Origin: Acetobacter sp. 46_36
Lineage (GTDB): Bacteria > Pseudomonadota > Alphaproteobacteria > RF32 > CAG-239
Assembly (NCBI GenBank): GCA_001917135.1
Contig: MNTT01000015.1
Location: 260,222-324,221, forward strand
Reading direction: 5' to 3'
DNA length: 64,000 nucleotides
The notes under the pieces are model-generated. The model saw only the letters and a program-made list of their open reading frames with translations, did no database searches and was not told where the DNA came from. Below, piece after piece: positions 14,800 to 63,969 of the stretch. The position numbers and the translations under genes are program-made. Within the stretch, counting starts at the first letter, position 1; the number at the start of each line of letters is the position of its first letter.

Positions 14800-15666
14800 T
14801 TATTTAAACCATGAGCCAAAATCAAAAAAGCCGCCGCCTTTGGAAACAGTTGTCCGTTTGATTGTAAAATCGTTGCGGCGACGCTTAATGTCGCGCCAGT
14901 CTTCCGGTGCATAAAATGTCCCCTGCCATAAGCCGGAAGATTCGCTTTTGGCCTTGGCTTCATAAGGGCGGTAGATGTCAGATTCTCTCGTATTTGCCAA
15001 AGCCCATCCGGCACCGACAAGTCCGGCGCCTATGTCATATTCTCCCCAAACGCATGTAGCCAAATCCTGTCCGTTGGGTTCTATTTTTAACAAATAACAG
15101 TCAATAGGGTTATTGTCTATCCAGCCCCGAACCCATGATGCGGCTTCTTCTCCGCAGTTGTATGAACTTCCGTTGGCATCTGAACAAATCTGATCATTAT
15201 CAGGCGCGTCAACGCCGAACAGACGGACATAGCGCCCGCCTATATAAAAAACATGCGCATGTATAACATTAGCGCTTCCGCTTATTTTAGGATAAGCCGA
15301 AGGGTCAAACCCGGTTTCTCTTTTCTTTTTCTGTTCTTTTCTGGGTGTTTTTTCCTGTTTTGATAAGCTTCGGCTTTTTTCCAGTTCATATTCCAGCCGG
15401 GCATCAATAATTTCTTTTTCTTGTCCAAGCGTTTCGTTATGTGTAGAATATAAAGCGTAAGCCAGCCCTGCTGCCGTAAGCGTAATCCAGAAATTATATT
15501 TGGGAAGCTGCTGGACAATGGCAATATGAGCCAAAGTAATGCCGCCGACAAGTATGCAAAAACCGATGGCCTGCCATACTTGTTCCCCGCCGTGGATAAG
15601 CCGTGCGCCGATAAATATAAAAATAAGCGCAACGATTCCGCATATAATTCTTTTCAACCAAAGCAT
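14800..15666 (-). CDS. Membrane-anchored thermonuclease (staphylococcal nuclease, SNase-like) family protein
   Basis: Three N-terminal TM helices, K/E-rich linker, then an SNase-like domain (VFYIGGRYVRLFGVDAPD...GEEAASWVRGWI...CVWGEYDIGAGLVGAGWA). Confidence 0.6.
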   Translation of the reverse strand: MLWLKRIICGIVALIFIFIGARLIHGGEQVWQAIGFCILVGGITLAHIAIVQQLPKYNFWITLTAAGLAYALYSTHNETLGQEKEIIDARLEYELEKSRSLSKQEKTPRKEQKKKRETGFDPSAYPKISGSANVIHAHVFYIGGRYVRLFGVDAPDNDQICSDANGSSYNCGEEAASWVRGWIDNNPIDCYLLKIEPNGQDLATCVWGEYDIGAGLVGAGWALANTRESDIYRPYEAKAKSESSGLWQGTFYAPEDWRDIKRRRNDFTIKRTTVSKGGGFFDFGSWFK

Positions 15667-19374: not shown

Positions 19375-20387
19375 TTCAGGTATCTCCCCGGCAAAAACAA
19401 CAGAAACAATGCCAAAATAAGGGCAAAAGTCAAAGGAATATAAAACAAGTCTTTTTTCTCCTGCACGATATTGCCCTCGCTTTTAGCCGGCTCCAACTGG
19501 TCAATTTTTGTATATATTTCAGCCAGCGAGTTTACGTCTGTTGCTCGAAAATAGTTTCCTTTTGTTTTTTGAGCCAGCTCCTTCAGGCTTTTTTCATCGA
19601 GTTCGCCATTGCCGAGTCCAAACAGTGAGCCGAGAAAGTTACGGTCGGAACCGACGCCGACGGTATATATTTTTATTCCCTCTTTTTCTGCCAGGCCGAT
19701 GGCTTGTGCCATGCTTAGGGAACCGTCGTTATTTTCTCCGTCCGTGAGCAAAATGATAACTTTATTGTTTTTTTCTTTTTCTTCCCGCAGATTTTTTAAT
19801 GCCAGACCCAGAGCATCGCCGATAGAAGTCGAATTGCCGGCCATACCTGCATCAGCATTATTCAGAATTTCTGCAACGGCATTTTTGTCAAAGGTAAGCG
19901 GAGACTGTACATAAGCGCGTGTTCCAAAAAGAATTAACCCAAGCCGGTCTTCCGTTCTTTTTTGCACAAAAGAGCCGACAACAGCTTTTACGGCTGTCAG
20001 CCTGTCAATCCTTTGGGTTCGGGACAAATCCGGTTGCAGCATTGACGGTGATATGTCTATAACGAGCATAATATCTCTGTTTTCAGCCTTAAGACGGTAT
20101 GGTTCGCCGACAAGTTGAGGACGTGCGGCAGCAATAACAAGCAGCACCCATAAAGAAAAAAGATAAAGATATTTAACGGAAAGCCAAGCTCTGCTTCCCA
20201 AAGCCGAAAATGCCGTTTGTTCAGATTTTGCCTGAATATATTTGATATCTTTTAAAAAGGGAACTTTTAATGCATCGCCGTGTACACCCCTGGCTTTGGG
20301 AAACAGAAAAAAAACGGCGAAAGGAAACAGCAGCAACCAAAAAAATTGCGGATATTCAAAAGTGGTCATAGATTTTCCCCTATCCAT
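19371..20387 (-). CDS. batA: BatA-like von Willebrand A domain membrane protein
   Basis: Two N-terminal TMs, vWA MIDAS motif (LVIDISPSM...DGENNDG), C-terminal TM. Confidence 0.7.
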   Translation of the reverse strand: MDRGKSMTTFEYPQFFWLLLFPFAVFFLFPKARGVHGDALKVPFLKDIKYIQAKSEQTAFSALGSRAWLSVKYLYLFSLWVLLVIAAARPQLVGEPYRLKAENRDIMLVIDISPSMLQPDLSRTQRIDRLTAVKAVVGSFVQKRTEDRLGLILFGTRAYVQSPLTFDKNAVAEILNNADAGMAGNSTSIGDALGLALKNLREEKEKNNKVIILLTDGENNDGSLSMAQAIGLAEKEGIKIYTVGVGSDRNFLGSLFGLGNGELDEKSLKELAQKTKGNYFRATDVNSLAEIYTKIDQLEPAKSEGNIVQEKKDLFYIPLTFALILALFLLFLPGRYLK

Positions 20388-20821
20388 TTTCGGCAGAAGT
20401 CTTTCAGGCTCTCAGCATCTTGCGGTACATAGGTTCGGCTGTTTTCTGAACCATTCATAAAAGGGGCAAACTTAAGAAGTTTTGCTGCCTGGGGGGATAA
20501 AGGAGAGGGAGTATGTTGATTTAGAAAGTCAATCCATTTTTCCCCGTAATATGAGCTTGCCTCCGGATATTTCAAAATGCAGATACGTCGCAACAATTCA
20601 GAAATCATAACCGCGGCATAAACCGGGCGTGATGTGGAAATTTCCTCAAGTTCTTTAAAAGCATAACGTCTTTTGCTGATTCGGCGCAGTTTTAAAATTA
20701 TTTTTATAATCATGAAAGCAAAAACACCGGCAGCCAGAACAACCCACCATCCGTATGCTACGGGAAAAAAAGATACGCCGTCAGGTATTTGTATATCTCT
20801 TATTTCCGGCAGATTGTTCAT
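20366..20821 (-). CDS. Small single-TM protein (DUF4381-like) preceding batA
   Basis: 151 aa, one TM (WWVVLAAGVFAFMIIKIIL). Position and size match the small membrane protein commonly upstream of batA. Confidence 0.45.
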   Translation of the reverse strand: MNNLPEIRDIQIPDGVSFFPVAYGWWVVLAAGVFAFMIIKIILKLRRISKRRYAFKELEEISTSRPVYAAVMISELLRRICILKYPEASSYYGEKWIDFLNQHTPSPLSPQAAKLLKFAPFMNGSENSRTYVPQDAESLKDFCRKWIGENL

Positions 20822-27558: not shown

Positions 27559-28596
27559 CTATTTGGATAGCCCCAGTGGCGTAAACGTAAATCGTATCTC
27601 TTTCCAGTCGCTGTATCTGGAGCCGCTTTGTGCCGACAATACCTTAAAGACACCGTAAACGTCCTGTGCTATATAAATTGCGCGTTCGGCGCTGTCTGCC
27701 AATGCCTGAAAATAGGTGTCAGTCCTGTAACGCCGCATATCTTCAATCTTTACGGATTCGATAAGTCCCTCTTTTGTCAGCTTGACGCTGATGACAACCT
27801 CAATATTGCGGTCGTCTTTACCGCCGGCAATCGTTTTCCATGATTCCTGAATTTTAGATTTTACAAAATCAATGCCGGATACCGACAGTTCGCTGAAATA
27901 CGACCCTTGGCTGTTTCCCCCCTCTATACCGAGGTTGTTGACCGGCTCGTCATAAGGAACCTGTGCCGGAGCATCTTCCTCGCCGATTTGTTTCTGCAAA
28001 TCATCAACGGAATTCATCAGGCTTTGCAGCGGATTAGCGCTTCTTACGGCATTTTTGTTTGGTTTTGCTGCCGGTTTACTGGCTGGAGTCACCTTTTTGT
28101 CGGTTTCGGTTTTTTTCGGCTGAACCGGCTTTTTATTCGGTTTAATCTGCGGCTTTTTCTGGGGAATTGGTGCCGGTTTTTTCTTTTCTTTCAGTGGCTC
28201 TTTCGATTCCTTTTTCGGTTCTTCTTTGGTTTCTTCCGGTTTTGGAGCTTCCTCAATCAGCGACGGCGATTTTATTTCCGGCGCTTTTACTTCGGGAACA
28301 GGCTCCGGTTTGGGTTTTTCTTCAACTTTCGGTGCAGGAGCTGGCTCGGCTTTTTTAGGGGTAAAACTCTCTTCGACAGGCTTTTCTTTGCGTGTCGCTG
28401 GTTTTTTTTCGGGACCGCGAACTGCTTTTGCCGGAATATTTGTCGTATCAGAAATTTTTACGTTCTCCAAATCGACCATAATCGGCGGCTGTTCATCAAA
28501 ATTACGTTTGCTTCCCAAAAACGGTATGTCAAAAACACATAGCAAAACTACTGCAATGTGTAAAGCAACCGATTTATAAACGTAATTTTTCTGCAT
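27559..28596 (-). CDS. tolA: TolA-like protein (N-terminal TM anchor, long Pro/Lys/Glu-rich spacer, C-terminal domain)
   Basis: Immediately downstream of tolQ-tolR; single TM (VALHIAVVLLCVF); PKPEPVPE/KKP repeats. Confidence 0.65.
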   Translation of the reverse strand: MQKNYVYKSVALHIAVVLLCVFDIPFLGSKRNFDEQPPIMVDLENVKISDTTNIPAKAVRGPEKKPATRKEKPVEESFTPKKAEPAPAPKVEEKPKPEPVPEVKAPEIKSPSLIEEAPKPEETKEEPKKESKEPLKEKKKPAPIPQKKPQIKPNKKPVQPKKTETDKKVTPASKPAAKPNKNAVRSANPLQSLMNSVDDLQKQIGEEDAPAQVPYDEPVNNLGIEGGNSQGSYFSELSVSGIDFVKSKIQESWKTIAGGKDDRNIEVVISVKLTKEGLIESVKIEDMRRYRTDTYFQALADSAERAIYIAQDVYGVFKVLSAQSGSRYSDWKEIRFTFTPLGLSK

Positions 28597-30431: not shown

Positions 30432-31109
30432 CTAATATGGATTTTTAGACGGATCCGGAGATTCCAAATCGTTGCTCCACTTAATGCGTTTGGCGCATTC
30501 ATTGTCCGCTGCGTTTTTAATCCGGCACAAATTGACTTCAATATCCGGCACGCCCGCCAAATTATAACAAATGTCTCCGGTTGTCGTAATAAACCGTTCC
30601 TGAGAGCCTTTTTCGGCAACGTTCCTGAAAATAAAAGCGAAAACACGATGCGGATAAACCAATTGCAGCCCCATAGTCTTTAATTCCCGGTCAAGATTTG
30701 ATTTTAACGTAACGCCGAAAGTGCAGTTAGTCCGCCCTGTCATATCCTGAAAGACTTTAAAGCTGCCTTTGCTGACACCGATAAGCATATCTCCGCTTAA
30801 AGGCTTGAGAATGCCGTCTGCTGGTGCGGACGGAGCCGTCGCCCCGGTTTGCTTTATTTTTTCGGCAGCCTTTTGAGCCGTATTCTCAAAGTTTTCCGTA
30901 TTTTCAACATCTTCTCGAATTTCCGGGTGGTCTCCGAACATTTCATTAAACAAAGCTTCGTTTTTATCGGTTTCATCAAAGGATAATCCTCCTGAAGACG
31001 GAAAAGAAGCCTCTTGCGCAGTTTCTCCGTCTAAAACTTGTGCGTTAATCGGCTGAACCGGCGCAAAAAGCAAAAACAGACCGTAAATGCTGGAAATAAC
31101 TCTTTTCAT
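30432..31109 (-). CDS. Secreted protein of unknown function (signal peptide; Cys-containing)
   Basis: Start moved to MKRVISSIYGLFLLFAPVQPINAQ (ATG 31107-31109, AGGAGA RBS). The 258-aa track ORF has no signal peptide at its own N-terminus. Confidence 0.5.
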   Translation of the reverse strand: MKRVISSIYGLFLLFAPVQPINAQVLDGETAQEASFPSSGGLSFDETDKNEALFNEMFGDHPEIREDVENTENFENTAQKAAEKIKQTGATAPSAPADGILKPLSGDMLIGVSKGSFKVFQDMTGRTNCTFGVTLKSNLDRELKTMGLQLVYPHRVFAFIFRNVAEKGSQERFITTTGDICYNLAGVPDIEVNLCRIKNAADNECAKRIKWSNDLESPDPSKNPY

Positions 31110-31302
31110 ATTCAGTCTCCTGTATAAAATTTTATTCGGCAAAACAGTGCAAAATATTTGGGGTAAAAACCCTTTAACACACAGTTCCGTAATCTGACCG
31201 CTCGTCATCCGGAAGTTCTGCCAAATATGCTTTTAAAGCTTGGGCAGCCTTCCGTTTCGAAAACCGCCCGTATTCTGCTGTAATATCCGATAATGACTTT
31301 TT

Positions 31303-32070
31303 CTAATAGATGTTTGTCAGCGTCTTGTCGGATGTTCCCATATTTTCGACGATTTTGCCGATAATCATATCAATGTCTGAAAGTTCGCGGCTTTCTGCCG
31401 ATTCGCTCATTGCAGCCTCTTCAGTTGCCGAAATGCGTTTAAACTCGCCGAAATATTCCGGATTCTTCGTGCTGACAAATTGGAATAAATCCGTGCAATC
31501 GCTTTTATCTGCGCTCATTCCAAAACTGCCGATGGTTTCCGTATTGCGTGCAATATCGCACGGCGTTACCGTGTAGTGTGCATCGCTTAACATCAGATAA
31601 CACTTTTCATTATCCATATAAGACCGCAGGGAAATCTGTTTATCGGCACCGAAAGCGTTAACCGTTACTGATGTTTGAACCGGTTTTGATGCGTCCTCTT
31701 TGCTGAACAGGGACTTTTGTTTTTCCGCCTCTTCTACACCCAACAGGGACTCGACATAACGGTCAAATTTAAAACGTTCGTCGACAACATCCGGCCAGTC
31801 AAGGTTTACGGTAAATGTTCTGAAGTTAATAGAAGTTCTGTTGTATAGGGTAATCATATAATTGCACCCTTTAACAACGCCGTCTTCCAAGACCGGGTCG
31901 ATGTCATGAATCTTAAAAATGACGGCATCAGGCCTGGTAGACGGTTCGCCGGATTTTGCCGCGGCCTTAGCCGTCGGTGCCGGAGCTTTTTCTGCAGCCT
32001 GAAGTGCTGTCGGCGCCGCCATAACAGCCCCTAAAAGGAAAACAGCCAGAAACTTTATCGATTTTTTCAT
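31303..32070 (-). CDS. Secreted protein of unknown function
   Basis: MKKSIKFLAVFLLGAVMAAPTALQAA signal peptide; 255 aa; four Cys; no recognisable family. Confidence 0.5.
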   Translation of the reverse strand: MKKSIKFLAVFLLGAVMAAPTALQAAEKAPAPTAKAAAKSGEPSTRPDAVIFKIHDIDPVLEDGVVKGCNYMITLYNRTSINFRTFTVNLDWPDVVDERFKFDRYVESLLGVEEAEKQKSLFSKEDASKPVQTSVTVNAFGADKQISLRSYMDNEKCYLMLSDAHYTVTPCDIARNTETIGSFGMSADKSDCTDLFQFVSTKNPEYFGEFKRISATEEAAMSESAESRELSDIDMIIGKIVENMGTSDKTLTNIY

Positions 32071-43602: not shown

Positions 43603-44781
43603 TTATTCTTTATAAATCTTGCTCCACAAAGGTATTTCGTTACCGATTCCTTTAGCTAGCTTATCTGCTTCAATAAAAGCCATTTCTCCGCTGTCAAACA
43701 TAACCCGGTACCATTTTTTGTCGGCGGTGTATCCGGTAAGCCGGACTGTTGTTCCCCGTTCAACGGTTGCAAAAACATCAAAGCCCCGGTCAGCGCCATG
43801 CATCGCCTGCGTCGTATCCGTAACATGGTATAGCTGCAGTTTGTCATGTACGTCAACCGGAATGTCAAAAATCTTTGCAACGGCAACATCGCTGAAAACT
43901 TTCTGTCCGTTTTTAAAAATAACAACTTCTTTGACGTTGACCTTATTTTTGTTTTCAGCCTCTATTTTGCCGAGAAACAGTCCGCCGGCGATAAGAAATA
44001 ATATAATCAGCAACATAAACGGATAGAAAAGTTGTATCCTTTTCAGTTTTCCGAAATTCCATTTTCTGACGCCGAGCGGGGTGTAATCGCTTAACGTCTG
44101 TAAATATTGATTAAGATAGGGCATTTCGTCTTTGTTTGCGTAATCTCTTGCCAAGGCGGCAAGTGTTGCTGCTTCCTTTTTCTTTCCCTCGGCATTATAA
44201 GCCAAAGCGTTATGCAGCAAAAGGTTCAGATTTTCTTTTCTGGCGTTGATATGGTTTATGTTCTGGATAATAGCGGCGATATTTACAAAAAAAGCGCTGA
44301 TTCCCAAAAAGCCGTAAAGCCAGTTATGCCGGGTAATTCTGCCAATAACTTCTGCCGCTTCATAAAGGCTGCAATAATAAATTTTATCAATTTTATTGTG
44401 TCCGAGTCCTTTTCCCGTTACTTCCGTCAGATGAAAAGCCCTCATATTCAAATCTTCCTGTCCGTGCATATTTCGAAGAACGAGAAGGGCGTTCATGTCA
44501 GGAAAGTTTTCCTTGTCGTAAATTATTGACAGGAGAGTATAAGCCAGCCTTGTTTGGGGCTCTTTAAGAACATCATATGCAGCGGAGATTTTTTGAAACA
44601 TATCAACGGCATCAGGGGAGTTATTATGGTCTGGATGCCAGAATTTAGCCATATCCCGATATTTTTGCCGCAGTTCTTCTTCCGGCGTTTCCGGAGAAAC
44701 TCCCAAAACTTTATAATAGTCCAAACTGTCGTATTTAAGTTCTTTCCCCATGTTAAATCCCCTGACCAAGCTTTTTTGCAA
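43603..44781 (-). CDS. J-domain (DnaJ-like) membrane protein with C-terminal SH3b-like domain
   Basis: J domain with HPD (YYKVLGV...AKFWHPDHNN), central region with one TM (LFYPFMLLIILFLIAGGLFL), C-terminal SH3-like beta domain (WYRVMFDSGEMAFIE). Confidence 0.55.
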   Translation of the reverse strand: MQKSLVRGFNMGKELKYDSLDYYKVLGVSPETPEEELRQKYRDMAKFWHPDHNNSPDAVDMFQKISAAYDVLKEPQTRLAYTLLSIIYDKENFPDMNALLVLRNMHGQEDLNMRAFHLTEVTGKGLGHNKIDKIYYCSLYEAAEVIGRITRHNWLYGFLGISAFFVNIAAIIQNINHINARKENLNLLLHNALAYNAEGKKKEAATLAALARDYANKDEMPYLNQYLQTLSDYTPLGVRKWNFGKLKRIQLFYPFMLLIILFLIAGGLFLGKIEAENKNKVNVKEVVIFKNGQKVFSDVAVAKIFDIPVDVHDKLQLYHVTDTTQAMHGADRGFDVFATVERGTTVRLTGYTADKKWYRVMFDSGEMAFIEADKLAKGIGNEIPLWSKIYKE

Positions 44782-45589
44782 TATTGCAAATATCCAAAGC
44801 AGCCTCGGAAGTCGGGTAACGGGAAAGCAGAAGTTCTTTGTTTCTTATCGTATCCCGGATTCTCGTGTCAATTCTGACAATACCGAGCAAGTCAGGACAT
44901 TTCAACCCGTTTCGATCGGCGGCTTTGTTTAGCTCTTCATAAATTTTATATCCGTCTTCAAAAGAATTTACTTTGTTAATTATTAAATTATAATTAGCAT
45001 CAATTTTCGTTTCATTCATAAATTTAATCAAATCAAACGTTTTAATCAGGTCGGCGCTGTTTTCTGAACACATAATCAGAATATTGTCGGCAATTTGGCA
45101 TAAACTCAGGTTTTTGTCTGTCAGTTCAGTGCCGAGGTCGATAATCGTATGGTCATAATTTTCTGCCAGAATTTGCAAATCTTCGGCCATAATCTGAACC
45201 CGCCCCAGAGGTAGTTCCGCCAGATAATTGTTTCCTTGTTCGGCAGTCAGAATATGAAAATTTTTATTTTTGTATGGCACCGTCAATTGGTTTAACGTTT
45301 TCTTTCCTTTAATATAATCTTCTAAAAAAGACGTATTTTGCAAAATAAGATAAGAGCTTATATTGGAAAAATTACCGTTGCCGTCAACCAGCAGGATACG
45401 CTTTTTTTCTGCATTCAAGGCGTGGGCAATGCTTAAAGCGCACCATGAAGTTCCGATTCGTTCGGCTCCCGATATCAGCACGGATAAGTTTCTGGGCGTT
45501 TCATGCTTCAGAAACAGATTGCTGTAAATTAAATCCCGGCTTTTGTTCAAAATAACACCTGTAATAACCTGGTTTGGCAATAAAGACAC
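44753..45589 (-). CDS. ParA/MinD/CpaE-like P-loop-fold protein with degenerate Walker A
   Basis: Fold-level resemblance to MinD/ParA, but the deviant Walker A KGGxGK[ST] is replaced by SGAERIGTSW. Overlaps the upstream J-domain gene by 29 nt. Confidence 0.5.
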   Translation of the reverse strand: MSLLPNQVITGVILNKSRDLIYSNLFLKHETPRNLSVLISGAERIGTSWCALSIAHALNAEKKRILLVDGNGNFSNISSYLILQNTSFLEDYIKGKKTLNQLTVPYKNKNFHILTAEQGNNYLAELPLGRVQIMAEDLQILAENYDHTIIDLGTELTDKNLSLCQIADNILIMCSENSADLIKTFDLIKFMNETKIDANYNLIINKVNSFEDGYKIYEELNKAADRNGLKCPDLLGIVRIDTRIRDTIRNKELLLSRYPTSEAALDICNIAKKLGQGI

Positions 45590-45681: not shown

Positions 45682-46686
45682 ATGAAAATAATCAGATTAC
45701 TGGTATTATCTCTGTTATGTGTTTTTTGTGGTCAGGTGCAGGCGGCTGACAACATTATTACCATGTTTGGCAAAGATGTAAACGGATATAATCAGCCGCG
45801 ATACTATAAGAGCAGTACGAGATATGACTGGCTGGACCGTTTTGATATTGTTGCTATTTCTGATCCGGATAATTTTCCCTGGTCATCGGCAGAACAAGGG
45901 TCTGTTTTTGTAAAAATTTTTGAAGATTTGGCCCAAAAGGAACATATTGTAGTTGTTTTTTATTATCCGGGCGAGGGGTATGAACAAAGCGTCGACGATT
46001 TTGAAAAAGGCAAAGTAAAGTTTATGACTAAAACAAACGCCGTTTTTGGAACATATTATGAAAACATTCCATACTCAAAAAATGAATATATCTATCCGGC
46101 TTTTTTTGAAAATAATATTCACATTATTACATCTGCCCGCAATAACATTGCTGTTAAAACCAAAGAAGATCTTAAAAATTTTAAAGGCGTATATTCGGCA
46201 GATGACCGCTTTTCAAGTTTCGTTCTTAAAGATTTTAAGTCTTTGGGAATTAAAGAAGCAAAAGATTATCCTGAAGCTTACAGGCAGCTTTTAAGCGGAG
46301 AAGCCGATTATGTCGTGGGAACTTATTATCCCAGCCAGATAGAGCTGTATAAGCTTGGAATTCGTGATTATGTTGTTTACAGCAAAGCGCCTGTCTGGAA
46401 AATGCCTATGTTTATCCGGGCAATGCCGGGGCTTGCAGAGCATCCTCGTATGGAATATTTGAAAAAATATTTGCGTAGTTCAAGATATAAAAAGGTTCGC
46501 GATGAAGCGCTGCAGGAACTTTTAGATATTTACAGGGAAAACACTAAGGGTATTGTCCCGCCGACATATGTAAATACGGCTCCGGATAAACAGGAACCGG
46601 CAGAAGACACTCCTGCTGCCGGAAAAAATACGGACACTCTGATACCGGATTCGGCCATGCCTTTGTCTGTAAATGAGAAAAAGTAA
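45682..46686 (+). CDS. Secreted periplasmic protein, possibly solute-binding-protein (family 3)-like
   Basis: Signal peptide LLVLSLLCVFCGQVQA; bilobed SBP-like mid region (KGVYSADDRFS...GEADYVVGTYY). Weak assignment. Confidence 0.45.
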   Translation: MKIIRLLVLSLLCVFCGQVQAADNIITMFGKDVNGYNQPRYYKSSTRYDWLDRFDIVAISDPDNFPWSSAEQGSVFVKIFEDLAQKEHIVVVFYYPGEGYEQSVDDFEKGKVKFMTKTNAVFGTYYENIPYSKNEYIYPAFFENNIHIITSARNNIAVKTKEDLKNFKGVYSADDRFSSFVLKDFKSLGIKEAKDYPEAYRQLLSGEADYVVGTYYPSQIELYKLGIRDYVVYSKAPVWKMPMFIRAMPGLAEHPRMEYLKKYLRSSRYKKVRDEALQELLDIYRENTKGIVPPTYVNTAPDKQEPAEDTPAAGKNTDTLIPDSAMPLSVNEKK

Positions 46687-55984: not shown

Positions 55985-56290
55985 ATGATGTCAAACGTTA
56001 AAATAGCCAAATATATTGCCATATTGCTGGGTGCCTGTATCGTTTTGTGCACTTATTTTGTGTTTTTGAAAATCCTGAATAAGAAAACGGGTATTTCCGG
56101 TGTTCCGGTTTCCACCGAAATAGTGCTGAAAGTTCCTGAAAATGCCGAAGTAAAAGATGTCAGGATAGCCGAGGGAAAAATTTATTTTTTAATGGCATCG
56201 CCTTATGAAGAGAGTTTAGTTATCGTTGACGAAAATGCCCGGCAGGAGATTTTGAAAATTGTTCTGAAAAAGGAGAAAGCCCATGAGTAA
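55985..56290 (+). CDS. Small single-TM protein, first gene of the coupling-protein operon
   Basis: 101 aa, one N-terminal TM (IAILLGACIVLCTYFVFL), AAGGG RBS. No recognisable family. Confidence 0.5.
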   Translation: MMSNVKIAKYIAILLGACIVLCTYFVFLKILNKKTGISGVPVSTEIVLKVPENAEVKDVRIAEGKIYFLMASPYEESLVIVDENARQEILKIVLKKEKAHE

Positions 56291-57380
56291 TGATGATTCT
56301 CTTGATGCCTTTTTGACTGCGGATATGCCGGCGGAGGAAAAGAAAAATAACAAAGACACAAGTTTGGAAGATGAATTTGCCAAGCTTTTGAATGATTTTA
56401 TAAATCAGGATAAACCGGCCGCAAAACCAGATAATAAAAAAACGGAAGATAGTCTGGACAGTTTTCTTGAAAGTTCGGGCAGCGGTCTTGACAGCTTCTT
56501 GACTTCGCCGGTTGTTCCGTCCGAAAACACACCGGCCGCACAGCCGCAGCAGACATCTTTCAATGCGGAATCTGTGGAAAATGCCGCACAGCCGACAGAG
56601 GTGGAGAATTTGTCCGGTCTCGAAGTTCAGTCTGTATTTGCCGCTCCCGAAACCGCGCCGGAAAATATTCAGGCCGACGATACTGCCGCAAATAGGCTGA
56701 AACAGGAAGAGCAGGAATTAGCGCGTGCGGTTGCCAATTTTCAGGATGGCATAGTTGCAATGGCTGACAAAAAAAATCTTAAAGTACCCGATACCGATTA
56801 CAAAGAAGATATGCTGTATCCGAACTATAAGCCCAGTATTGGCAAAAAAATTGCCCAATATCTGCTGGCATGCTGGGATATTATGAATAAATATGATCCT
56901 GAAAATATGAAACGGCTCTCCAAAGATGCCGGAGATGAAGAATATCTCGCTTTTGCCGAAACGCTGAACGATACGGATATGCAGCTTGCCATAATATCGT
57001 ACGTTGAAATTCTTATAAATCTGGAAATTTGCGAGGTCAGCTATGAGCAAAAAAAAGAAATTTTGCAAAAAAATCGGATAAAGCGGGAATTGTATGAAGA
57101 ATATATGGAACTTCAGGAACGAAAAGCCCTGTTTATCAAAAAATTGAAAGAAAAAGATTTTCCGGTAGATGCGGAGCGGCTGATAGGAAATTACTTTCGG
57201 GTTGCACAAAAAGATCCCGACGGCTCGTTTAATGCTTTGGTAAAGAATCCGGCTATGTTTTCTCCGATAGAATTTGAAAAAATCCGGCCCAAATTTTTCG
57301 GATTAATAAAAGTAACGCCCGAAGACGGAATAAAAGCAAATCAAAAAATCGGGCATTTTATAAAAAAACTTAAAGTTTAA
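56283..57380 (+). CDS. Acidic protein: disordered N-terminal half with 3x SLDxFL motif, predicted helical C-terminal domain
   Basis: AAGGAG RBS; start overlaps the previous stop by 8 nt. DSLDAFL / DSLDSFL / GLDSFL tandem motif. No recognisable family. Confidence 0.6.
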   Translation: MSNDDSLDAFLTADMPAEEKKNNKDTSLEDEFAKLLNDFINQDKPAAKPDNKKTEDSLDSFLESSGSGLDSFLTSPVVPSENTPAAQPQQTSFNAESVENAAQPTEVENLSGLEVQSVFAAPETAPENIQADDTAANRLKQEEQELARAVANFQDGIVAMADKKNLKVPDTDYKEDMLYPNYKPSIGKKIAQYLLACWDIMNKYDPENMKRLSKDAGDEEYLAFAETLNDTDMQLAIISYVEILINLEICEVSYEQKKEILQKNRIKRELYEEYMELQERKALFIKKLKEKDFPVDAERLIGNYFRVAQKDPDGSFNALVKNPAMFSPIEFEKIRPKFFGLIKVTPEDGIKANQKIGHFIKKLKV

Positions 57381-57471
57381 TAAAATTTGCCTGATAGCGG
57401 AACGGTTTAAAGTAGACAACCTGCGGTTTTTATGCTAATATAACATAAAAGCATAAAAATCGGAGGCAAAA

Positions 57472-59103
57472 ATGGCTGAGCAATCCCAAATAAACAAATT
57501 GGACCGGATACTAAAGCAAAATATAGAAGATATGGAAAAAGCTACAGAGGCTAATTTGATTAGTGTTCCTCCCCGAGCCGGGGCAGAAACCGGAAATGGC
57601 AGTGCGCCTGCCGGGCAGCCGCCGGAAACCGGGACGCCGTCTCCGTCAGCAGGAACTGATAATACGGGAACGGGCGGAAACGATACAGGGGACAGCAGCA
57701 GTAACAGTCAGGACGCTCCTGCACAGCCTGAAAACGGACGGGATACACCGGAACCGCGTCGTCCCGAAAAAATTCCCGATGGTATCTCGCGGGCGTATGA
57801 TGATGTGTCTTTAGGCGAATTTGATACCAAAGCCCCGAAAGAAAAAACGGAAACCAAGGGTTCAAAACCTAAAGGCGGCATAACGCCCCCCAAACGCGAC
57901 CGCGGTGGAACCAAGGGAAAATCCGGCGGCGATGATATTATGGAAGTTTTTTGGAATGACTGTATTATGGCTTTTTATGCCTGGACAATAGATACGGTTG
58001 TCGACAATACGCTGGATTTTGCCGAATGGGTACTGTTTTCGCCATACAAATCCGGCGGCAGTACGGTTGAAACTACGACTGAAAAAAAGCCGAAAACCAT
58101 ATATATGTTGGGCGAAGAATTGTATAAAAGCCGTATGGAAAACTTTGCCAAAGAAAAAGATAAGCTGATAGAATTAAACGAAAATCTGGAAAAAAGCGCA
58201 AACGGAATCCAGCCTGAATGGAGACTTTGGGGAAAAATGCCGGCATTTTATCCCAAATTGCAGCAAATTCATGCCAAGGCAATAGAAAATCCCGACTCTG
58301 AAGAAGCCAAATTTATGCATAAGTACGGTTTGGGAAGCAGTGCCGAAACCGTCAAAGGGCGTTTTGCCAAAGAGGAAAAACTGTTTATGCTCGCAGTTCG
58401 TTTGGCTACGGTAGAAGAAGTCGTCAGCGATGCCAAAAATACGATTTCTCCTGAATTTTCCCAAAAATTGGCGGATTTGGATGAAACGTTGAAAAAGAAT
58501 AATTGCAGCAAGCAGGATATAACGGAAAAAATCAATGCTCTGTCTGAAGAAGCAGGCGGAGAATACGCTGTTTGCAAAGGTGTTTCTGATAAAATAGAAG
58601 AGATAAAGACCCTTCTTGAAAAAGATGGCGATATTTCAAAAGTAAAAAAAGATATCGTAAAAAAAGCCAAGGATATTCGTAAGATTTCCGAGGGTGCCGG
58701 CCACGATGAAGACATCATAAAAGAACATATCAGAAAACGCGGCCAGGAAAAATATAAGAGGCTTATGGAAAATATTGATAAAATTCATGAAGCTTATGTG
58801 GATGACCCGGAAAAGGTCAAGGAAACTATTAAAGAATACCTTAGTTCTGTAAATAATGCCGGCAAGGAGGCCAAGCAAGCGACGGACAAAGTCATTGAAG
58901 AAGGCCTGAAAGGCAAAATAAATGCCGGGGAAAAACGTAAAAACGCCAAAGCATCCGTAGAAAAAATTGATACGGCGATAAATGATTTTATGCTTGAAGG
59001 CGAAAAAATATCATCAAAAGCTCCGGCAGCCCAAAAAGATGAATTCGTATTAACGGAAAAACAATTTTCTAAAGCTATAAAAGATTATCGGTTGGGTCGC
59101 TAA
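57472..59103 (+). CDS. 543-aa protein: G/T/P/S-rich disordered N-region, then a long K/E-rich predicted helical domain
   Basis: GGAGG RBS; coding-like composition. No recognisable family. Confidence 0.6.
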   Translation: MAEQSQINKLDRILKQNIEDMEKATEANLISVPPRAGAETGNGSAPAGQPPETGTPSPSAGTDNTGTGGNDTGDSSSNSQDAPAQPENGRDTPEPRRPEKIPDGISRAYDDVSLGEFDTKAPKEKTETKGSKPKGGITPPKRDRGGTKGKSGGDDIMEVFWNDCIMAFYAWTIDTVVDNTLDFAEWVLFSPYKSGGSTVETTTEKKPKTIYMLGEELYKSRMENFAKEKDKLIELNENLEKSANGIQPEWRLWGKMPAFYPKLQQIHAKAIENPDSEEAKFMHKYGLGSSAETVKGRFAKEEKLFMLAVRLATVEEVVSDAKNTISPEFSQKLADLDETLKKNNCSKQDITEKINALSEEAGGEYAVCKGVSDKIEEIKTLLEKDGDISKVKKDIVKKAKDIRKISEGAGHDEDIIKEHIRKRGQEKYKRLMENIDKIHEAYVDDPEKVKETIKEYLSSVNNAGKEAKQATDKVIEEGLKGKINAGEKRKNAKASVEKIDTAINDFMLEGEKISSKAPAAQKDEFVLTEKQFSKAIKDYRLGR

Positions 59104-59114
59104 GGAGAAGATAA

Positions 59115-59606
59115 ATGGCAAAAGTGGAAAAATTGATAAAATTTTTTACGGTTTGTGCAGTTGTTTTTGTCGTTTTGGGGTATATTTGCCGGGAATTGTT
59201 TAAATTTATCTGGAATTTTGATATTTTCAATCGGGAATCTTACCGGATTTTGTATGATTACTGGGAAAACGGCGGCGTATTTAATACGTTTCGGGATTGC
59301 AGCTTGGGGCTGTTCTTGTTTTTAATGCCCGTAATATGGCTGGTTTTGAGTTATAAGCTGTATAAGTACGGGCTGGTGAAGTTTTTGCTTAATCCGTTGG
59401 TTAAACTGTACCGCCGTATAACCCGTCCTAAAACTATGGAAGTTGAACACGTTTCAATCAAAAATCTTGGCGGGAAGGATAAAACGCTGGATGAGATTAT
59501 CGCCGAAAAAGTGGAAAAGCAGGGAGGGAACAAAAGTGCCGGACATGCCTCGCAAAATCTGCGCCGGCAGATAGCTGCAAAAATTGAAGAAAATGAAAAA
59601 CAATAA
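59115..59606 (+). CDS. 2-TM membrane protein, paralogous in its N-terminus to the next gene
   Basis: AAGGAG RBS; TMs FFTVCAVVFVVLGYIC and LGLFLFLMPVIWLVLSY. Shared motif WNFDIF...ESYRILYDYWENGG. Confidence 0.6.
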   Translation: MAKVEKLIKFFTVCAVVFVVLGYICRELFKFIWNFDIFNRESYRILYDYWENGGVFNTFRDCSLGLFLFLMPVIWLVLSYKLYKYGLVKFLLNPLVKLYRRITRPKTMEVEHVSIKNLGGKDKTLDEIIAEKVEKQGGNKSAGHASQNLRRQIAAKIEENEKQ

Positions 59607-59660
59607 TTACTTGTTAACCAATCAATGGATATAATGGGAAAATAAAAGCCGGAGAAGAAC

Positions 59661-60986
59661 TTGAAACCGCTGATAATAATACTAAAAACACTGATAGTCG
59701 GCTATTTATGGAGTATTGTCTTCATAGATGGCATCAGGGTGGTTTTGCTTATAAACTGGCATTTTGACATCTTTTTATCCGAACACTGGCGCCTTTTGAG
59801 TTATAAGTGGAACAGCGGAGCGCCTATGACAAATTCAGAACTGGGCTTTTTTATGATTATAGCCAGCTCGATTCCGCTGTGGCTTGCCGGCTGGGTAGGG
59901 TTATGCCTTGTAAAGTGGGAGCGCCTGCTGAAAAAAGTATTCTTAAGCCCTCTGTATCTTTTCCGCAAAATAACCTTAAAAACCAAACCTCCGGTAGTTG
60001 TTAAGAAAAAGTCCATTGCGGAAGAAACAAAAGTTGTTAAAAAGACGCCGATAATCAAAAAAGCCCCGGTCAAACGTCCGCCGCTGCCGTCTGCGACTTT
60101 AATGCAGTCAAATATAAACAGTAATTTGATGGCATCGCCTGCCGGACGTACTTCTTCCTATACACCGGGCAAAAAAGAGCCGGAAGCGCCGATTAACCAT
60201 GCTCTGTTTAATTTTGACGATGATGATTTTGACTTGGATTTTGATTTTGAAAAGAAAGATAAGAAGCCGGATATCGATGATTCCATTCCTTCGGCGCTTA
60301 TGGTTGACGAGCCGAAAACGATTGAAACCGTTCCTGCGGCGGTTGTTGAAGAAAAGCCTAAAAACACGCCGGCACCTTCAAAAAACCAGGAAAAATCATC
60401 ACCGCAGAATAATAAAAAAGACAATGCCCAGCCTAAAAACAAATCCGCAGATATGTCTGCCGCTCAGGCTATGCCGATTAAGGAATCCCATACTCCGGTT
60501 TTGGATGTTCTTAATCAAAAGGGATTTGACGTCATCCCTTCGGCGATTATCAAAAATACGACAATTGATTACATCGGCGTTTCCAAAAATCAACTCTTTT
60601 TATGCCTGATTGATAAAGAAGCCGGCGACTGGCTGGCGGATGAAGAAAAGTTCAATGATGAAGAGCCGTTATGGTTTTCGGAAAGCAGCCACCGCATTTC
60701 TCCGGTACGAAAGATTGATGTGGCCAGAGATATTTTAAAGACCAAACTGGCTGTCGGAGATATGAATTTTGAAATCATCGCGTATGTTATCATTCAGGCC
60801 GGCAATATTATTAACGCCGAGGATATGTTTGAAATCTGGAACAATATGAACGTAAATGTAACGCGTATAAACCGGGGCAGCCCGAAAGAAATCCGTCTGT
60901 TTTCAAAGTCGTTGGATAATTGTGAGGAAAAAACGGATAAAAATACGCTTGAAAAACTTAAGAAACTTATTCGCAGTCTGGCATAA
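59661..60986 (+). CDS. 2-TM membrane protein with long K/P-rich and acidic-aromatic linker and ~190-aa C-terminal globular domain; TTG start
   Basis: GGAGAAG RBS with TTG at 59661. N-terminus paralogous to the preceding gene (WHFDIF...EHWRLLSYKWNSG). FNFDDDDFDLDFDFE patch. Confidence 0.55.
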   Translation: MKPLIIILKTLIVGYLWSIVFIDGIRVVLLINWHFDIFLSEHWRLLSYKWNSGAPMTNSELGFFMIIASSIPLWLAGWVGLCLVKWERLLKKVFLSPLYLFRKITLKTKPPVVVKKKSIAEETKVVKKTPIIKKAPVKRPPLPSATLMQSNINSNLMASPAGRTSSYTPGKKEPEAPINHALFNFDDDDFDLDFDFEKKDKKPDIDDSIPSALMVDEPKTIETVPAAVVEEKPKNTPAPSKNQEKSSPQNNKKDNAQPKNKSADMSAAQAMPIKESHTPVLDVLNQKGFDVIPSAIIKNTTIDYIGVSKNQLFLCLIDKEAGDWLADEEKFNDEEPLWFSESSHRISPVRKIDVARDILKTKLAVGDMNFEIIAYVIIQAGNIINAEDMFEIWNNMNVNVTRINRGSPKEIRLFSKSLDNCEEKTDKNTLEKLKKLIRSLA

Positions 60987-61010
60987 TTGTTATTATTGAG
61001 GTAAGAAAAA

Positions 61011-63230
61011 ATGGCAAAAGAAAGAGGAAAAGAATGGGAAGAATATGACAACGCCGTCCGGTGGATGACAATAACGTTCGCCATCGCGGTCGTTGTTACG
61101 GTTGTTTTCATGTATATCGCCCCGATTCTGGCATTTTTTATGCAAAACGGTATTTCCAAAAAGAGTGTGGAAATAGCAGGTTTGTTTTTGAAAAAGTCTT
61201 TTGCAGACTTTGGCTTTTTGTGGGACTGGTATCTGAAATGGTTCAAAAAGGTTTATCGTTACAGCGGCGAGTTTAAAATAAGTTTATGGCCGCCGATTCT
61301 GCCGTTTATTTCTTTTCCGCTGATTTTGATTATCGGCGGCATAAAGTGCCCGTATAAATTCCAATCGAATATTCACGGGTCGGCGCACATTGCTACTTTG
61401 CGCGATATTGAAAAAATGCCGCTGCTCGGATTTGACGGTTTTTGTATGGTGGTCGGCAAGTTTCAGGGTAAAATGCTGAAACTGAAAGAAACGCTGTCAA
61501 CCCTGTGTTGTGCGCCTCCGGGAACCGGTAAAACTGCCGGTGTCGTTATTCCGACAATTTTTAATTCCGAGGGGCTTAGCATTATCGTAAACGACCCGAA
61601 ACCAGAGTTGTGCTACCAGACGACGGGTGCGAGAAACAAGGTCGGCCCTGTATTTGTCATCAACTGGGGTAAGGAAGACAATCCGGCAACTGGAGAATAC
61701 TATCCGAGTTGGAACCCGCTGTCTCCGGGAGCGCTCCCGGCACCGGGGCCGGAACGCGACCTGTATGTCGATTCTATGTGCAACACGCTGGTGGAAGACC
61801 CCAAGGGCGGCGCTGACCCGCACTGGTCAAAAACCGGTCGAAGCGCGCTCTGCGGCTTTATCCATTTTATCTCTTCCAAATGCGAACGGGCTTTAGCTAA
61901 TGAACGCTTTATACAGAAAATTTATGAAGGCTCAATGACAGCCGAAGACAAAGCCGAGTTGATAAAGCTTTACGACGAAATGAGCATCGGCGGTTTGCGG
62001 GCTAATGCCGCGCGCGCAATTCAGGACTTGCAGAACGGAAATCTGACGATTGAAAATTATCTGCCTGTCGGAACCTGGAACCTACTGCCGGAAAAATGGA
62101 TTAACCACGAGCCCTGTCTGGCGATGATTCTGGAATGGATTACTTCGTCCCAGATTGAACAGAGCAATGAAATTAAACGCCGCCTGGAAGAAGGCGACCA
62201 AATGGCCGCTATGGCAGACCCGATGCGCGATTTGCTGGACGCCGCGGTGGAAGAAGCAAATAACTATGGGTATTCCCGCCGCTGCGTAACCGAATTGAGC
62301 GCTTTGAGCGCCATGCCGGATAAAGAGCGGGGATCCGTCCTTTCTACCGGTCTTACCGGTATCGGTATTTTCAAAAACTCGGCAGTTGTGGCCCGTACCA
62401 GCTTTTCCGATATTCAGTTTAAAGATTTGCGTGGTATGAAGGATCCGGTAACCGGCGAATGGAAGCCGATTTCCGTTTACCTTTCGGTTAACCAGACGGA
62501 CGCTCAGGCGTTGAACCCGATTAGCGCGACATTTGTTGACCTGATGAGCGCTTATCTTATTTCAAATCCGCCGAATTCTGTTAACCGTACTGACGGTAAA
62601 ATGGGGCCTTTCCCGACTTTGTTTGTGCTTGACGAGTTCCCGCAGATGCCGAAGCTGAAAGCGGTTATTGACGGGCCGGCGGTCGGCCGCGGACAAAAAG
62701 TTTCGTATCTGCTGATTGGGCAAGACTTGGGTCAGATTTCCGGAAAATACGGTAAAGACGACTTGGAAACAGTTATATCTACAACTGCCTGCAAGGTTAT
62801 TCTGTCACAGAACAACGAACAGACGGCACAGCGTTTTTCCAAAATGATTGGCAATAAAACGGTGCAGACTACGTCCTACAGCCGAAACGAAGGCAGCCTT
62901 GCCAAAGAATATAATCCGTTTGCCAAAAACGTCAGCTATCAGTTGCAGGGCGTTTCAGCCATCAGTGCCAATGACTTGTTGAGTTTGCCGATGCTGAAAC
63001 AGGTCGTGCTGATGCAAGGCTCGATTGATACGCCGATTATGGCAGACGCGCCGCGTTTTTATCTGGACAAGAAAATGCTGGCAATGTCAAAGCTCCCGCA
63101 TTCTCCGTGGGTTCCGGACTGGATTGTTGCTCAGCGTACTGATGAAAATGAGGATATCCTGTCTAAATTAGGTATAGACTATGATCCGAATGCAGAAGAA
63201 GAGGAAGGTTTTGAAGAAGACGAAGCTTAA
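61011..63230 (+). CDS. Type IV secretion/conjugation coupling protein (VirD4/TraG/TraD family ATPase), 739 aa with acidic C-terminal tail
   Basis: Two N-terminal TMs, IHGSAHIATLRD (TraG/VirD4 HGSARWA-like motif), Walker A APPGTGKTAG, Walker B LFVLDEFPQM, C-terminus ...DPNAEEEEGFEEDEA. Confidence 0.85.
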   Translation: MAKERGKEWEEYDNAVRWMTITFAIAVVVTVVFMYIAPILAFFMQNGISKKSVEIAGLFLKKSFADFGFLWDWYLKWFKKVYRYSGEFKISLWPPILPFISFPLILIIGGIKCPYKFQSNIHGSAHIATLRDIEKMPLLGFDGFCMVVGKFQGKMLKLKETLSTLCCAPPGTGKTAGVVIPTIFNSEGLSIIVNDPKPELCYQTTGARNKVGPVFVINWGKEDNPATGEYYPSWNPLSPGALPAPGPERDLYVDSMCNTLVEDPKGGADPHWSKTGRSALCGFIHFISSKCERALANERFIQKIYEGSMTAEDKAELIKLYDEMSIGGLRANAARAIQDLQNGNLTIENYLPVGTWNLLPEKWINHEPCLAMILEWITSSQIEQSNEIKRRLEEGDQMAAMADPMRDLLDAAVEEANNYGYSRRCVTELSALSAMPDKERGSVLSTGLTGIGIFKNSAVVARTSFSDIQFKDLRGMKDPVTGEWKPISVYLSVNQTDAQALNPISATFVDLMSAYLISNPPNSVNRTDGKMGPFPTLFVLDEFPQMPKLKAVIDGPAVGRGQKVSYLLIGQDLGQISGKYGKDDLETVISTTACKVILSQNNEQTAQRFSKMIGNKTVQTTSYSRNEGSLAKEYNPFAKNVSYQLQGVSAISANDLLSLPMLKQVVLMQGSIDTPIMADAPRFYLDKKMLAMSKLPHSPWVPDWIVAQRTDENEDILSKLGIDYDPNAEEEEGFEEDEA

Positions 63231-63246
63231 ATCTGCCGCTGCGGAA

Positions 63247-63969
63247 ATGAGAAGTTTTTCTCTGTGGTGCGTTTTGAAGAGCAGTATAAAATTTATACTG
63301 CTCTTCAAGCGTACATTTTTATTGTGGTGTTTGGCAAATTTTGCTTTTCTGATTGTCTTTAGGCAGATTCCAAATGGCTGGACCAATTCGCTGAGCATCC
63401 TGTGGCTTGTTGCCTACTATGTGTTTTGGTGCGTGTTTGTCCGTCATATTCAGCAGCATCCGCCTTATTTTTCCCTAATTCGTATTTTTAACGGTTTGAT
63501 TCCCGCCAGCAAAATTATGTTTATTAACATTATAATCTATTTGGTTTTGGTAATTGCTCCATACATTCCATTATTTATGGGTTTTAGGGAGAAATATCTG
63601 GAATTTTTTGAGCAATATATGGCTGTTTTGCAAAGCCATAATTCCCTGCCGGGGAAAACGCTGTTTTATGTATTAATGCTGCTGTTGTCTCCGTATACGA
63701 TAAGCCGGCCGTATCTTGCCTGGTTATCATCGCTGATAGGAAAAAGCCGCTCAATCATAGATGCTTACAAAAAGACACAAGGCAACTATTGGAATTTTGT
63801 CTTTTGTGCAGTTGTTATGAGCGGGCTGTTTGCTCTGTCATATTTTATTGACGTTACTTATAAAACAAGCTCTCTGATTTTTGTAATGTCAGTCCTGCCG
63901 ATATTTTTCAATGTCGTCTTTATTGATATTTACAAAGTATTTTACAAGCGTAGAAAAAATATCAAATAA
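63247..63969 (+). CDS. Polytopic membrane protein of unknown function, last gene of the operon
   Basis: About 6 hydrophobic segments. Start ambiguous: the track ORF starts at 63181 and overlaps the T4CP gene by 50 nt; MRSFSLW at 63247 avoids the overlap. Confidence 0.5.
   Translation: MRSFSLWCVLKSSIKFILLFKRTFLLWCLANFAFLIVFRQIPNGWTNSLSILWLVAYYVFWCVFVRHIQQHPPYFSLIRIFNGLIPASKIMFINIIIYLVLVIAPYIPLFMGFREKYLEFFEQYMAVLQSHNSLPGKTLFYVLMLLLSPYTISRPYLAWLSSLIGKSRSIIDAYKKTQGNYWNFVFCAVVMSGLFALSYFIDVTYKTSSLIFVMSVLPIFFNVVFIDIYKVFYKRRKNIK

Follow-up and report, generated by a model that had tools for sequence, protein, structure and literature searches.

Here, we report on a 64,000-nt stretch of DNA (the window; Acetobacter sp. 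46_36, assembly GCA_001917135.1, contig MNTT01000015.1, positions 260,222–324,221) that carries a VirD4/TraG-family type IV coupling protein (T4CP) within a block of otherwise unfamiliar genes. We find that five consecutive genes of this block, O2–O6, of which O6 encodes the T4CP, are kept together throughout a large group of gut and rumen Alphaproteobacteria, and that O2, O4 and O5 are real, selected partners of the T4CP without a described family, as seen in about 80 species and many metagenome contigs. We favour, with a probability of roughly 0.6, the reading that O2–O6 encode the coupling (substrate-receptor) complex, with new accessory subunits, of a P-type type IV secretion system (T4SS) that resembles the rvh system and is likewise scattered, its channel genes lying elsewhere in the genome. 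A published account of the block was not found in the literature on RF32 and T4SSs, on NERD and coupling proteins, or on VirD4 and pentapeptide repeats.

A conserved five-gene unit

The block (55985–63969) comprises seven open reading frames (ORFs), O1–O7, all on the plus strand. Successive gaps from O1 to O6 are −8, 91, 11, 54 and 24 nt, and a GGAG-type ribosome-binding site lies 6–10 nt 5′ of the start of each of O2–O6, in agreement with the original prediction, which was made from the sequence of the window and described seven closely spaced, co-directional ORFs with good ribosome-binding sites. That prediction also spoke of a seven-gene operon ending in the T4CP gene. The T4CP gene, however, is the sixth of the seven and not the final one; because only O2–O6 are conserved and a stem-loop separates them from the body of O7, a seven-gene operon overstates the unit.

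We compared 80 species-level genomes of gut and rumen Alphaproteobacteria whose T4CPs are 70–100% identical. Whether the gene order recurs in relatives had been left as a check, and for O2–O6 it does: the chain of an O2-like gene, an ORF in the O3 slot, an O4-like gene, an O5-like gene and the T4CP gene is present, tightly spaced, in 70 of the 70 loci long enough to contain it. In every locus that reaches them, this chain adjoins the divergently transcribed rluD and rpoH; around the window's own T4CP gene, rluD lies to one side and ligA to the other. Over 55 far relatives, the median identity of the T4CP is 72%, against 60% for RluD and 76% for RpoH as housekeeping comparisons, indicating strong purifying selection. 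The corresponding medians are 44% for O2 (over its C-terminal two-thirds only), 41% for O5 and 27% for O4. By tblastn, O3 matched in 0/55 far relatives, O1 in 8/24 near and 0/55 far relatives, and O7 in 23/24 near but only 8/55 far relatives (median identity 38%). O1 and O7 are thus confined to the close clade and lie outside the conserved core. The conservation of the upstream ORFs, on which the original prediction had staked its claim, therefore splits: O2, O4 and O5 are kept, but the sequences of O1 and O3, like that of O7, are not conserved beyond the close clade.

The genes 3′ of the T4CP gene vary by clade and are unrelated to the block; among them are genes for a carboxypeptidase of the PBP5 type, for an ABC exporter and for an ECF sigma factor. 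The base composition of the locus has no anomaly, and neither an integrase, repeats nor a compositional shift was seen there, as judged from base composition and from Pfam searches of the 40 largest other ORFs of the window. Conservation of five genes, clade-variable genes downstream and normal composition together indicate that the selected unit is O2–O6, a vertically inherited core locus.

Metagenomes extend this picture. Scanning metagenome contigs with an alignment of O5 gave 185 relatives, from which 80 loci were kept; 63 of these have a clear O5 gene and at least 600 nt of sequence downstream of it. The next gene is a T4CP gene in 62 of the 63, at a median gap of 19 nt. This adjacency reaches a distant lineage in which the T4CP is 53% identical and O2–O4 are lacking, and O5 plus the T4CP therefore constitute the invariant core. 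The public assembly collection lists a T4CP identical to that of the window in 5,441 blocks, on contigs from gut-metagenome assemblies and metagenome-assembled genomes (MAGs); one such contig is JBAMOE010000001.1 of GCA_037071425.1.

The coupling ATPase

O6 (61011–63230; 739 amino acids (aa)) was called a T4CP in the original prediction by reading of motifs, and profile searches bear this out: O6 matches Pfam PF02534 (T4SS-DNA_transf) at 7e-54 (183.8 bits; cut-off 20.1), as well as PF12696 (TraG-D_C; 79.8 bits) and PF10412 (TrwB_AAD_bind; 65.5 bits). It falls below the cut-off of every NCBIfam T4CP equivalog (VirD4, IncP or Ti TraG, F TraD and CD1115), the best being CD1115 (146.9 bits versus a cut-off of 250); the VirD4 model PRK13897 gives 127.8 bits (cut-off 728). 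O6 is a genuine VirD4/TraG coupling protein. Hydropathy places an N-terminal transmembrane hairpin in hydrophobic segments at residues ~14–49 and ~88–115, and the protein further contains Walker A (G171-x-G173-K174-T175; nt 61521–61535) and Walker B (D541; nt 62631–62633) motifs, an all-alpha domain and a short acidic C-terminal tail. Among 21 diverse homologues, down to 31% identity, K174 and D541 never vary, and conservation reaches at least 90% at G171, G173 and T175. The Walker residues are likewise kept across the 70 species, in which half of all O6 positions show at least 95% conservation. With its Walker motifs intact and conserved, the ATPase looks active.

The nearest solved relative of O6 is Cag-beta (8DOL; 1.4e-15), which was reached only with a profile and aligns over residues 434–713 only; a single-sequence phmmer search of O6 against the Protein Data Bank (PDB) gave no match. 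The nearest plasmid T4CPs share 35–39% identity with O6 in the nucleotide-binding domain only, the tblastn alignments starting from residue ~113 onward. Because the genes for these plasmid T4CPs close canonical virB2–virB11 clusters on alphaproteobacterial megaplasmids, we take O6 to descend from a P-type VirD4. Full-length relatives of O6, at 33–53% identity, emerged from an exhaustive search of 1.84 billion representatives; the N-terminal transmembrane region of O6 is common to other lone chromosomal T4CPs, which alone match it along the full length, and is not shared by plasmid VirD4s.

A membrane-anchored partner with a predicted nuclease-like fold

The original prediction held the six remaining genes to be unrecognisable. 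Indeed, O1–O5 and O7 match no Pfam or NCBIfam model at threshold, and searches against PADLOC and PHROGs gave no meaningful match; but O5 has a predicted, divergent NERD-like domain and O4 is a paralogue of the O5 N-terminus.

O5 (59661–60986; 441 aa) starts with TTG, a start backed by conservation of the first transmembrane helix. Several public gene calls cut the protein to 386 aa from an internal ATG, and the first transmembrane helix is then lost. In an AlphaFold2 model, O5 comprises an N-terminal helical hairpin predicted to be transmembrane (about residues 1–107), a basic, disordered linker that holds a conserved acidic motif, HALFNFDDDDFDLDFDF, at residues ~180–196, and a C-terminal alpha/beta domain (residues 277–441; nt 60489–60983) with a predicted local distance difference test score (pLDDT) of ~80. 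Top Foldseek matches of this domain are mostly restriction-endonuclease-like folds and are statistically weak (AF1548, the R2 RLE domain, N.BspD6I, EndoMS, RecU, Bax1, Card1 and FokI are on the list), the best being 1y88 with E 0.012, probability 0.95 and a TM-score to the target of 0.40. The Pfam NERD model matches 29 of 31 diverse O5 orthologues, in all cases below threshold (best 7e-4), and one O5 homologue has a precomputed match to PF08378 (NERD); the window's own O5 has no NERD match at an E of 1 or better. Because the fold matches and these independent sub-threshold matches point the same way, we call the domain NERD-like, and the model weakly supports a divergent NERD-like PD-(D/E)xK fold. 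Profile searches of O5, of its C-terminal domain and of O2 against the PDB returned chance-level matches only.

With the register set by eye against the predicted strands, the putative active-site motif reads D303...D318-K319-E320 rather than the canonical D...(D/E)xK. D303 and D318 are invariant or nearly so, K319 lies between D318 and E320, and the position of the catalytic Lys is occupied by Glu in 69 of 70 species, so that the canonical catalytic Lys is absent. After strand 3, the domain has a 30-residue acidic insert, the loop GDWLADEE[KR]FNDEEPLWFSESSHRISPVRK, that is almost wholly invariant across the 70 species. The predicted nuclease fold hints at DNA binding, even though the canonical catalytic Lys is missing.

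The other genes of the block

O4 (59115–59606; 163 aa) is predicted to form a two-helix transmembrane hairpin, with hydropathy segments at residues 1–33 and 59–84 and a conserved loop, W-N-F-D-I-F...W..GG. BLASTP aligns it to O5 at 32% identity over 77 aa (E 2e-7), which identifies O4, at the level of sequence, as a short paralogue of the O5 N-terminal hairpin. In the L102–L124 lineage, a full-length O5 paralogue fills the O4 position.

O2 (56283–57380; 365 aa) combines a disordered N-terminus of 135 residues with a confidently predicted helical bundle (residues 140–320), followed by a conserved C-terminal motif, FFGLIKVTPEDGIKAN. Within the disordered part, residues 29–40 (nt 56367–56402) form an acidic, amphipathic and universally conserved motif, EDEFAKLLNDFI, with the consensus [DE]3-F-x-[KR]-LL-[ND]-x-FI; in the close clade the N-terminus also contains LDSF repeats. 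Fold comparison of the bundle found resemblance only to generic bundles, and similarity to CagZ, DotM, DotN or IcmSW was not detected. In GCA_037071425.1, O2 is split into pieces of 138 and 256 aa (L003 8816–9976), probably through a frameshift or an assembly error.

O3 (57472–59103; 543 aa) has a disordered N-terminus rich in Gly, Ser, Thr and Pro and a long, charged, coiled-coil-like C-terminus. Its position is always filled by an ORF of 430–740 aa, the sequence of which evolves fast: after five rounds, an iterative hidden Markov model search ties together only 42 of the 70 proteins in the O3 slot. A ZorA-like identity was considered and dropped, as the weak PADLOC match (0.005) falls in the coiled-coil region.

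At the two ends of the block, O1 (55985–56290; 101 aa) has one N-terminal hydrophobic segment by hydropathy and a small C-terminal domain, and O7 (63181–63969) is a polytopic membrane protein of 240–262 aa, depending on whether the start at 63181 or one of the in-frame alternatives at 63211 and 63247 is chosen. A scan for terminator-like structures identified a plus-strand stem-loop at 63273–63309, inside the annotated 5′ end of O7 and ~45 nt after the T4CP stop codon, with a stem of 15–17 bp followed by a T-rich tail. In most relatives that have O7 (L007–L031), RNAfold predicts this stem at an unchanged offset, with compensatory changes; the structure is degraded in L028 and L029. Because the peptide encoded across it, KSSxKFxLL[FY]K, is conserved too, the stem-loop could act as a terminator or an attenuator, or could be an RNA structure inside the coding sequence. 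It probably marks the 3′ end of the O2–O6 unit.

The search for channel genes

No T4SS, relaxase or pilin gene was found by Pfam among the 40 largest other ORFs of the window, which belong only to housekeeping families (RlmN, TyrRS, RadA, Mla, a Bat-like operon, iPGM, a porin, TolQ, UDG, GlmM, LpxC, BamD, RecN, Tgt and an RND efflux pump), and tblastn with VirB2–VirB11 from two sources found no match in the window; the earlier statement that the 64 kb hold no such gene thus stands. An ordinary virB or tra cluster just past the end of the window would have made the T4CP unexceptional, and there is none: the next 10 kb contain ligA, infC, fba and glgP and no T4SS gene.

A relative from the human gut, L102/L175, offers a different perspective on this isolation. 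Its T4CP is 60% identical to that of the window and is encoded in a module of O5 paralogue, O5 and T4CP. Pfam identifies, ~5 kb from this module and on the opposite strand, a virB islet (L175 8313–19132; also L102 2–5282, L176 and L177) with the order VirB8, a 66-aa lipoprotein, VirB8, VirB9 (CagX), VirB10 (TrbI) and VirB11 (T2SSE). The VirB9 ends in a SPOR domain, and the VirB10, at 2205 aa, is exceptionally large and contains internal repeats and a TrbI domain. After virB11 comes flaF and no virD4, the T4CP gene being ~6 kb away on the other strand. The order of the islet equals that of Rickettsia rvh islet C, in which virB8a, virB7, virB8b, virB9b, virB10 and virB11 are followed by virD4 (PMC2653234), and the isolation of the T4CP in the window therefore probably reflects how the genome is laid out. 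In sister species of L102, whose T4CPs are 77–83% identical, no virB islet lies within 10 kb, from which we conclude that the islets move around. The original description of an isolated T4CP accordingly holds for the flanks, which lack virB and tra genes, but the word 'orphan' probably describes the local neighbourhood only.

Other lone chromosomal T4CPs

Six contexts examined for the relatives of 33–53% identity are all housekeeping neighbourhoods without virB genes. The upstream partner differs among them: O5 in one, a pentapeptide-repeat protein in four and a pilin-like protein in one.

In four lineages (L091 9006–12193, L092 8772–13042, L093 8971–13069 and L094 8672–12226), the gene for a lone T4CP of 35–39% identity is translationally coupled to one upstream of it that encodes a soluble pentapeptide-repeat protein whose C-terminal tail is basic, and no virB gene lies within 10 kb of these four loci. 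Some of these T4CPs (P0364, P0371 and P0375) have C-terminal tails of ~300 aa, acidic and Phe-rich in P0364 and P0375 and highly charged in P0371. Small proteins adjoin two further lone T4CPs (L089 9503–9958 and L090 13437–13880); read by eye, their N-termini resemble type IV prepilins, with G, four residues, E and a hydrophobic helix.

Comparison with known systems

A close likeness is to the rvh T4SS and its coupling protein RvhD4: a chromosomal, vertically inherited P-type system of Alphaproteobacteria, arranged in islets among housekeeping genes, with the islet C order and the duplicated virB8 flanking a virB7-like gene seen in the relative L175. In Rickettsia, however, virD4 directly follows virB11 (PMC2653234), whereas here the T4CP gene occupies its own islet with O5 and the other partners. 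The hosts differ as well, being extracellular gut and rumen lineages represented by MAGs. RvhD4 is not known to us to have an O5-like partner.

The Dot/Icm system, in which DotL works with DotM/IcmP, DotN and IcmS/W, provides an architectural analogy, in that a T4CP is equipped with dedicated accessory subunits and a partner is encoded directly 5′ of the T4CP gene. DotM is encoded upstream of its T4CP, begins with a transmembrane hairpin and continues into a cytoplasmic domain; O5 similarly combines an N-terminal transmembrane hairpin with a predicted cytoplasmic C-terminal domain. By the same analogy, the acidic peptide motifs would be likely docking signals. In contrast to Dot/Icm, however, the cytoplasmic domain of O5 has a predicted nuclease fold and the T4CP is VirD4-like, not DotL-like. 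In PDB searches, neither O5 nor O2 resembled DotM, DotN or IcmSW in sequence or fold, and the notion of O5 as a DotM homologue was abandoned when neither the PDB profile search nor the Foldseek list contained a DotM entry.

Cag-beta of Helicobacter (Cag5, a VirD4 homologue) is the nearest solved T4CP by profile and has a dedicated small helical partner, CagZ; the match, however, is limited to the C-terminal part of the nucleotide-binding domain, and O2 has no detected similarity to CagZ. With NERD (PF08378) and PD-(D/E)xK nucleases, the O5 domain shares a predicted alpha/beta core and consistent weak matches. It departs from them in its sub-threshold scores, its D...D-K-E motif and its 30-residue acidic loop insert, and in being membrane-tethered and obligately paired with a T4CP.

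Interpretation

The original prediction considered a divergent coupling subcomplex or T4CP adaptors, and this option fits the conservation of O2, O4 and O5 with the T4CP. It also ranked the block as the most likely undescribed system in the window. The finding is real and the partners are new, but an undescribed or free-standing system is less probable than one part of a familiar type of machinery, equipped with novel accessory subunits. In such a coupling complex, the T4CP, whose Walker A and B motifs are intact and whose N-terminus forms a transmembrane hairpin, would be the inner-membrane ATPase at the centre of the module. O5, encoded directly 5′ of it and bearing its own transmembrane hairpin, and O4, with its paralogous hairpin, would dock on the transmembrane domain of the T4CP in the inner membrane, so that the cytoplasmic NERD-like domain of O5 may sit beside the ATPase ring. 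Candidate docking motifs are the acidic tail of the T4CP and the conserved Phe-rich, acidic peptides found in O5 and O2; they may work like the TraD tail with TraM, or a Glu-rich signal with DotM, in assembling adaptors or recruiting substrates. The channel genes, virB3/4/6 and virB8–11, would lie in other chromosomal islets, and the T4CP would hand its substrates to the VirB channel, a step suggested by the relative L102/L175 only.

Several observations weigh against this reading. There is no virB gene in the 64 kb, in the 10 kb downstream or within 10 kb on either side of the module in the other ~170 related loci, and in the lineage that has the virB islet, O2 and O3 are missing from their usual position. 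Other chromosomal T4CPs (33–50% identity) also stand alone amid housekeeping genes with different upstream partners. Furthermore, physical association among the products of O2–O6 is a prediction, and the NERD assignment of O5 depends on sub-threshold matches.

Lone T4CPs with different partners make a T4SS-independent family conceivable, and the main alternative is that the block encodes a domesticated machine in which a T4CP hexamer, together with O5, O4, O2 and O3, processes or moves a polymer, DNA or another, at the inner membrane or across it, with no VirB channel. The housekeeping neighbourhood with no T4SS gene nearby in ~170 loci, the adjacency of a NERD-like protein to a DNA-pump-type ATPase, conservation at the level of core genes and the N-terminal transmembrane region common to lone chromosomal T4CPs, and not to plasmid VirD4s, all speak for such a machine. 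It is unlikely, given that in a relative with the same O5–T4CP module an rvh-type virB islet without its own virD4 lies 5 kb away, that the catalytic Lys of the (D/E)xK motif in O5 is replaced by Glu, and that we know of no T4CP that functions without a channel.

O5 and the T4CP might instead make up a new kind of DNA-handling coupling unit, in which the membrane-tethered NERD-like protein replaces the soluble relaxosome; The T4CP could then receive nucleic acid from O5, and either serve an rvh-like channel or act without any channel. We consider this quite unlikely.

A mobilisation module, remnant or resident, of an integrated element, consisting of a T4CP and a restriction-endonuclease-like relaxase with a T4SS supplied in trans, is suggested by the adjacency of the T4CP to a protein of PD-(D/E)xK fold, presumably a pairing like that of MOBC-type systems such as CloDF13 MobB/MobC. 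This is very improbable: the locus is fixed and syntenic beside rpoH and rluD in about 80 species with a divergence that tracks housekeeping genes, it has no integrase, repeats or compositional shift, and O5 found no match at an E of 1 or better on 72,556 plasmids; moreover, no relaxase known to us is membrane-anchored in the manner of O5.

An anti-phage or anti-plasmid defence system, with an FtsK/HerA-superfamily ATPase coupled to a nuclease, recalls HerA–nuclease defence pairs in its combination of ATPase and nuclease fold and draws on a weak PADLOC match to mad8 (E 0.0017), but is hardly probable at all, since that match is not meaningful, the proposed catalytic motif of O5 is incomplete, and defence systems are usually patchy and turn over fast, whereas this locus has an invariant core-genome placement, with 70–100% identity across an order-level clade and no variable presence. 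Conflict with core-genome conservation led us to drop both the defence system and the integrated mobile element.

Other features of the window

On the minus strand at 15708–20821, the window contains the Bat-like operon, which encodes BatD, a protein with TPR and VWA domains, a VWA protein and a DUF4381 protein; an SNase-like ORF (14800–15666) adjoins it. Five ORFs of 255–345 aa have no Pfam match at 1e-5 or better: 27559–28596, 30432–31208, 31303–32070 and 44753–45589, all on the minus strand, and 45682–46686 on the plus strand.

Implications

Substrate choice and loading by coupling proteins are understood in few systems, among them F TraD–TraM and Legionella DotL with DotM, DotN and IcmSW. 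The block described here presents a VirD4-type ATPase with an obligate, strongly conserved, membrane-anchored partner of predicted nuclease fold, together with two further conserved partners, of which O2 likewise bears a short acidic motif with a putative docking role; none belongs to a described family. The hosts are uncultured Alphaproteobacteria that are common in the gut of humans and animals. Although the rvh system has been called a signature of the Rickettsiales (PMC11077975), the virB islet of a relative suggests that secretion systems of the rvh type are at work in these gut lineages too, and one may ask what the bacteria inject and what their targets are. If, alternatively, the DNA-handling reading of O5 and the T4CP were true, the locus would represent a relaxase-independent route for DNA export or uptake in abundant gut Alphaproteobacteria.

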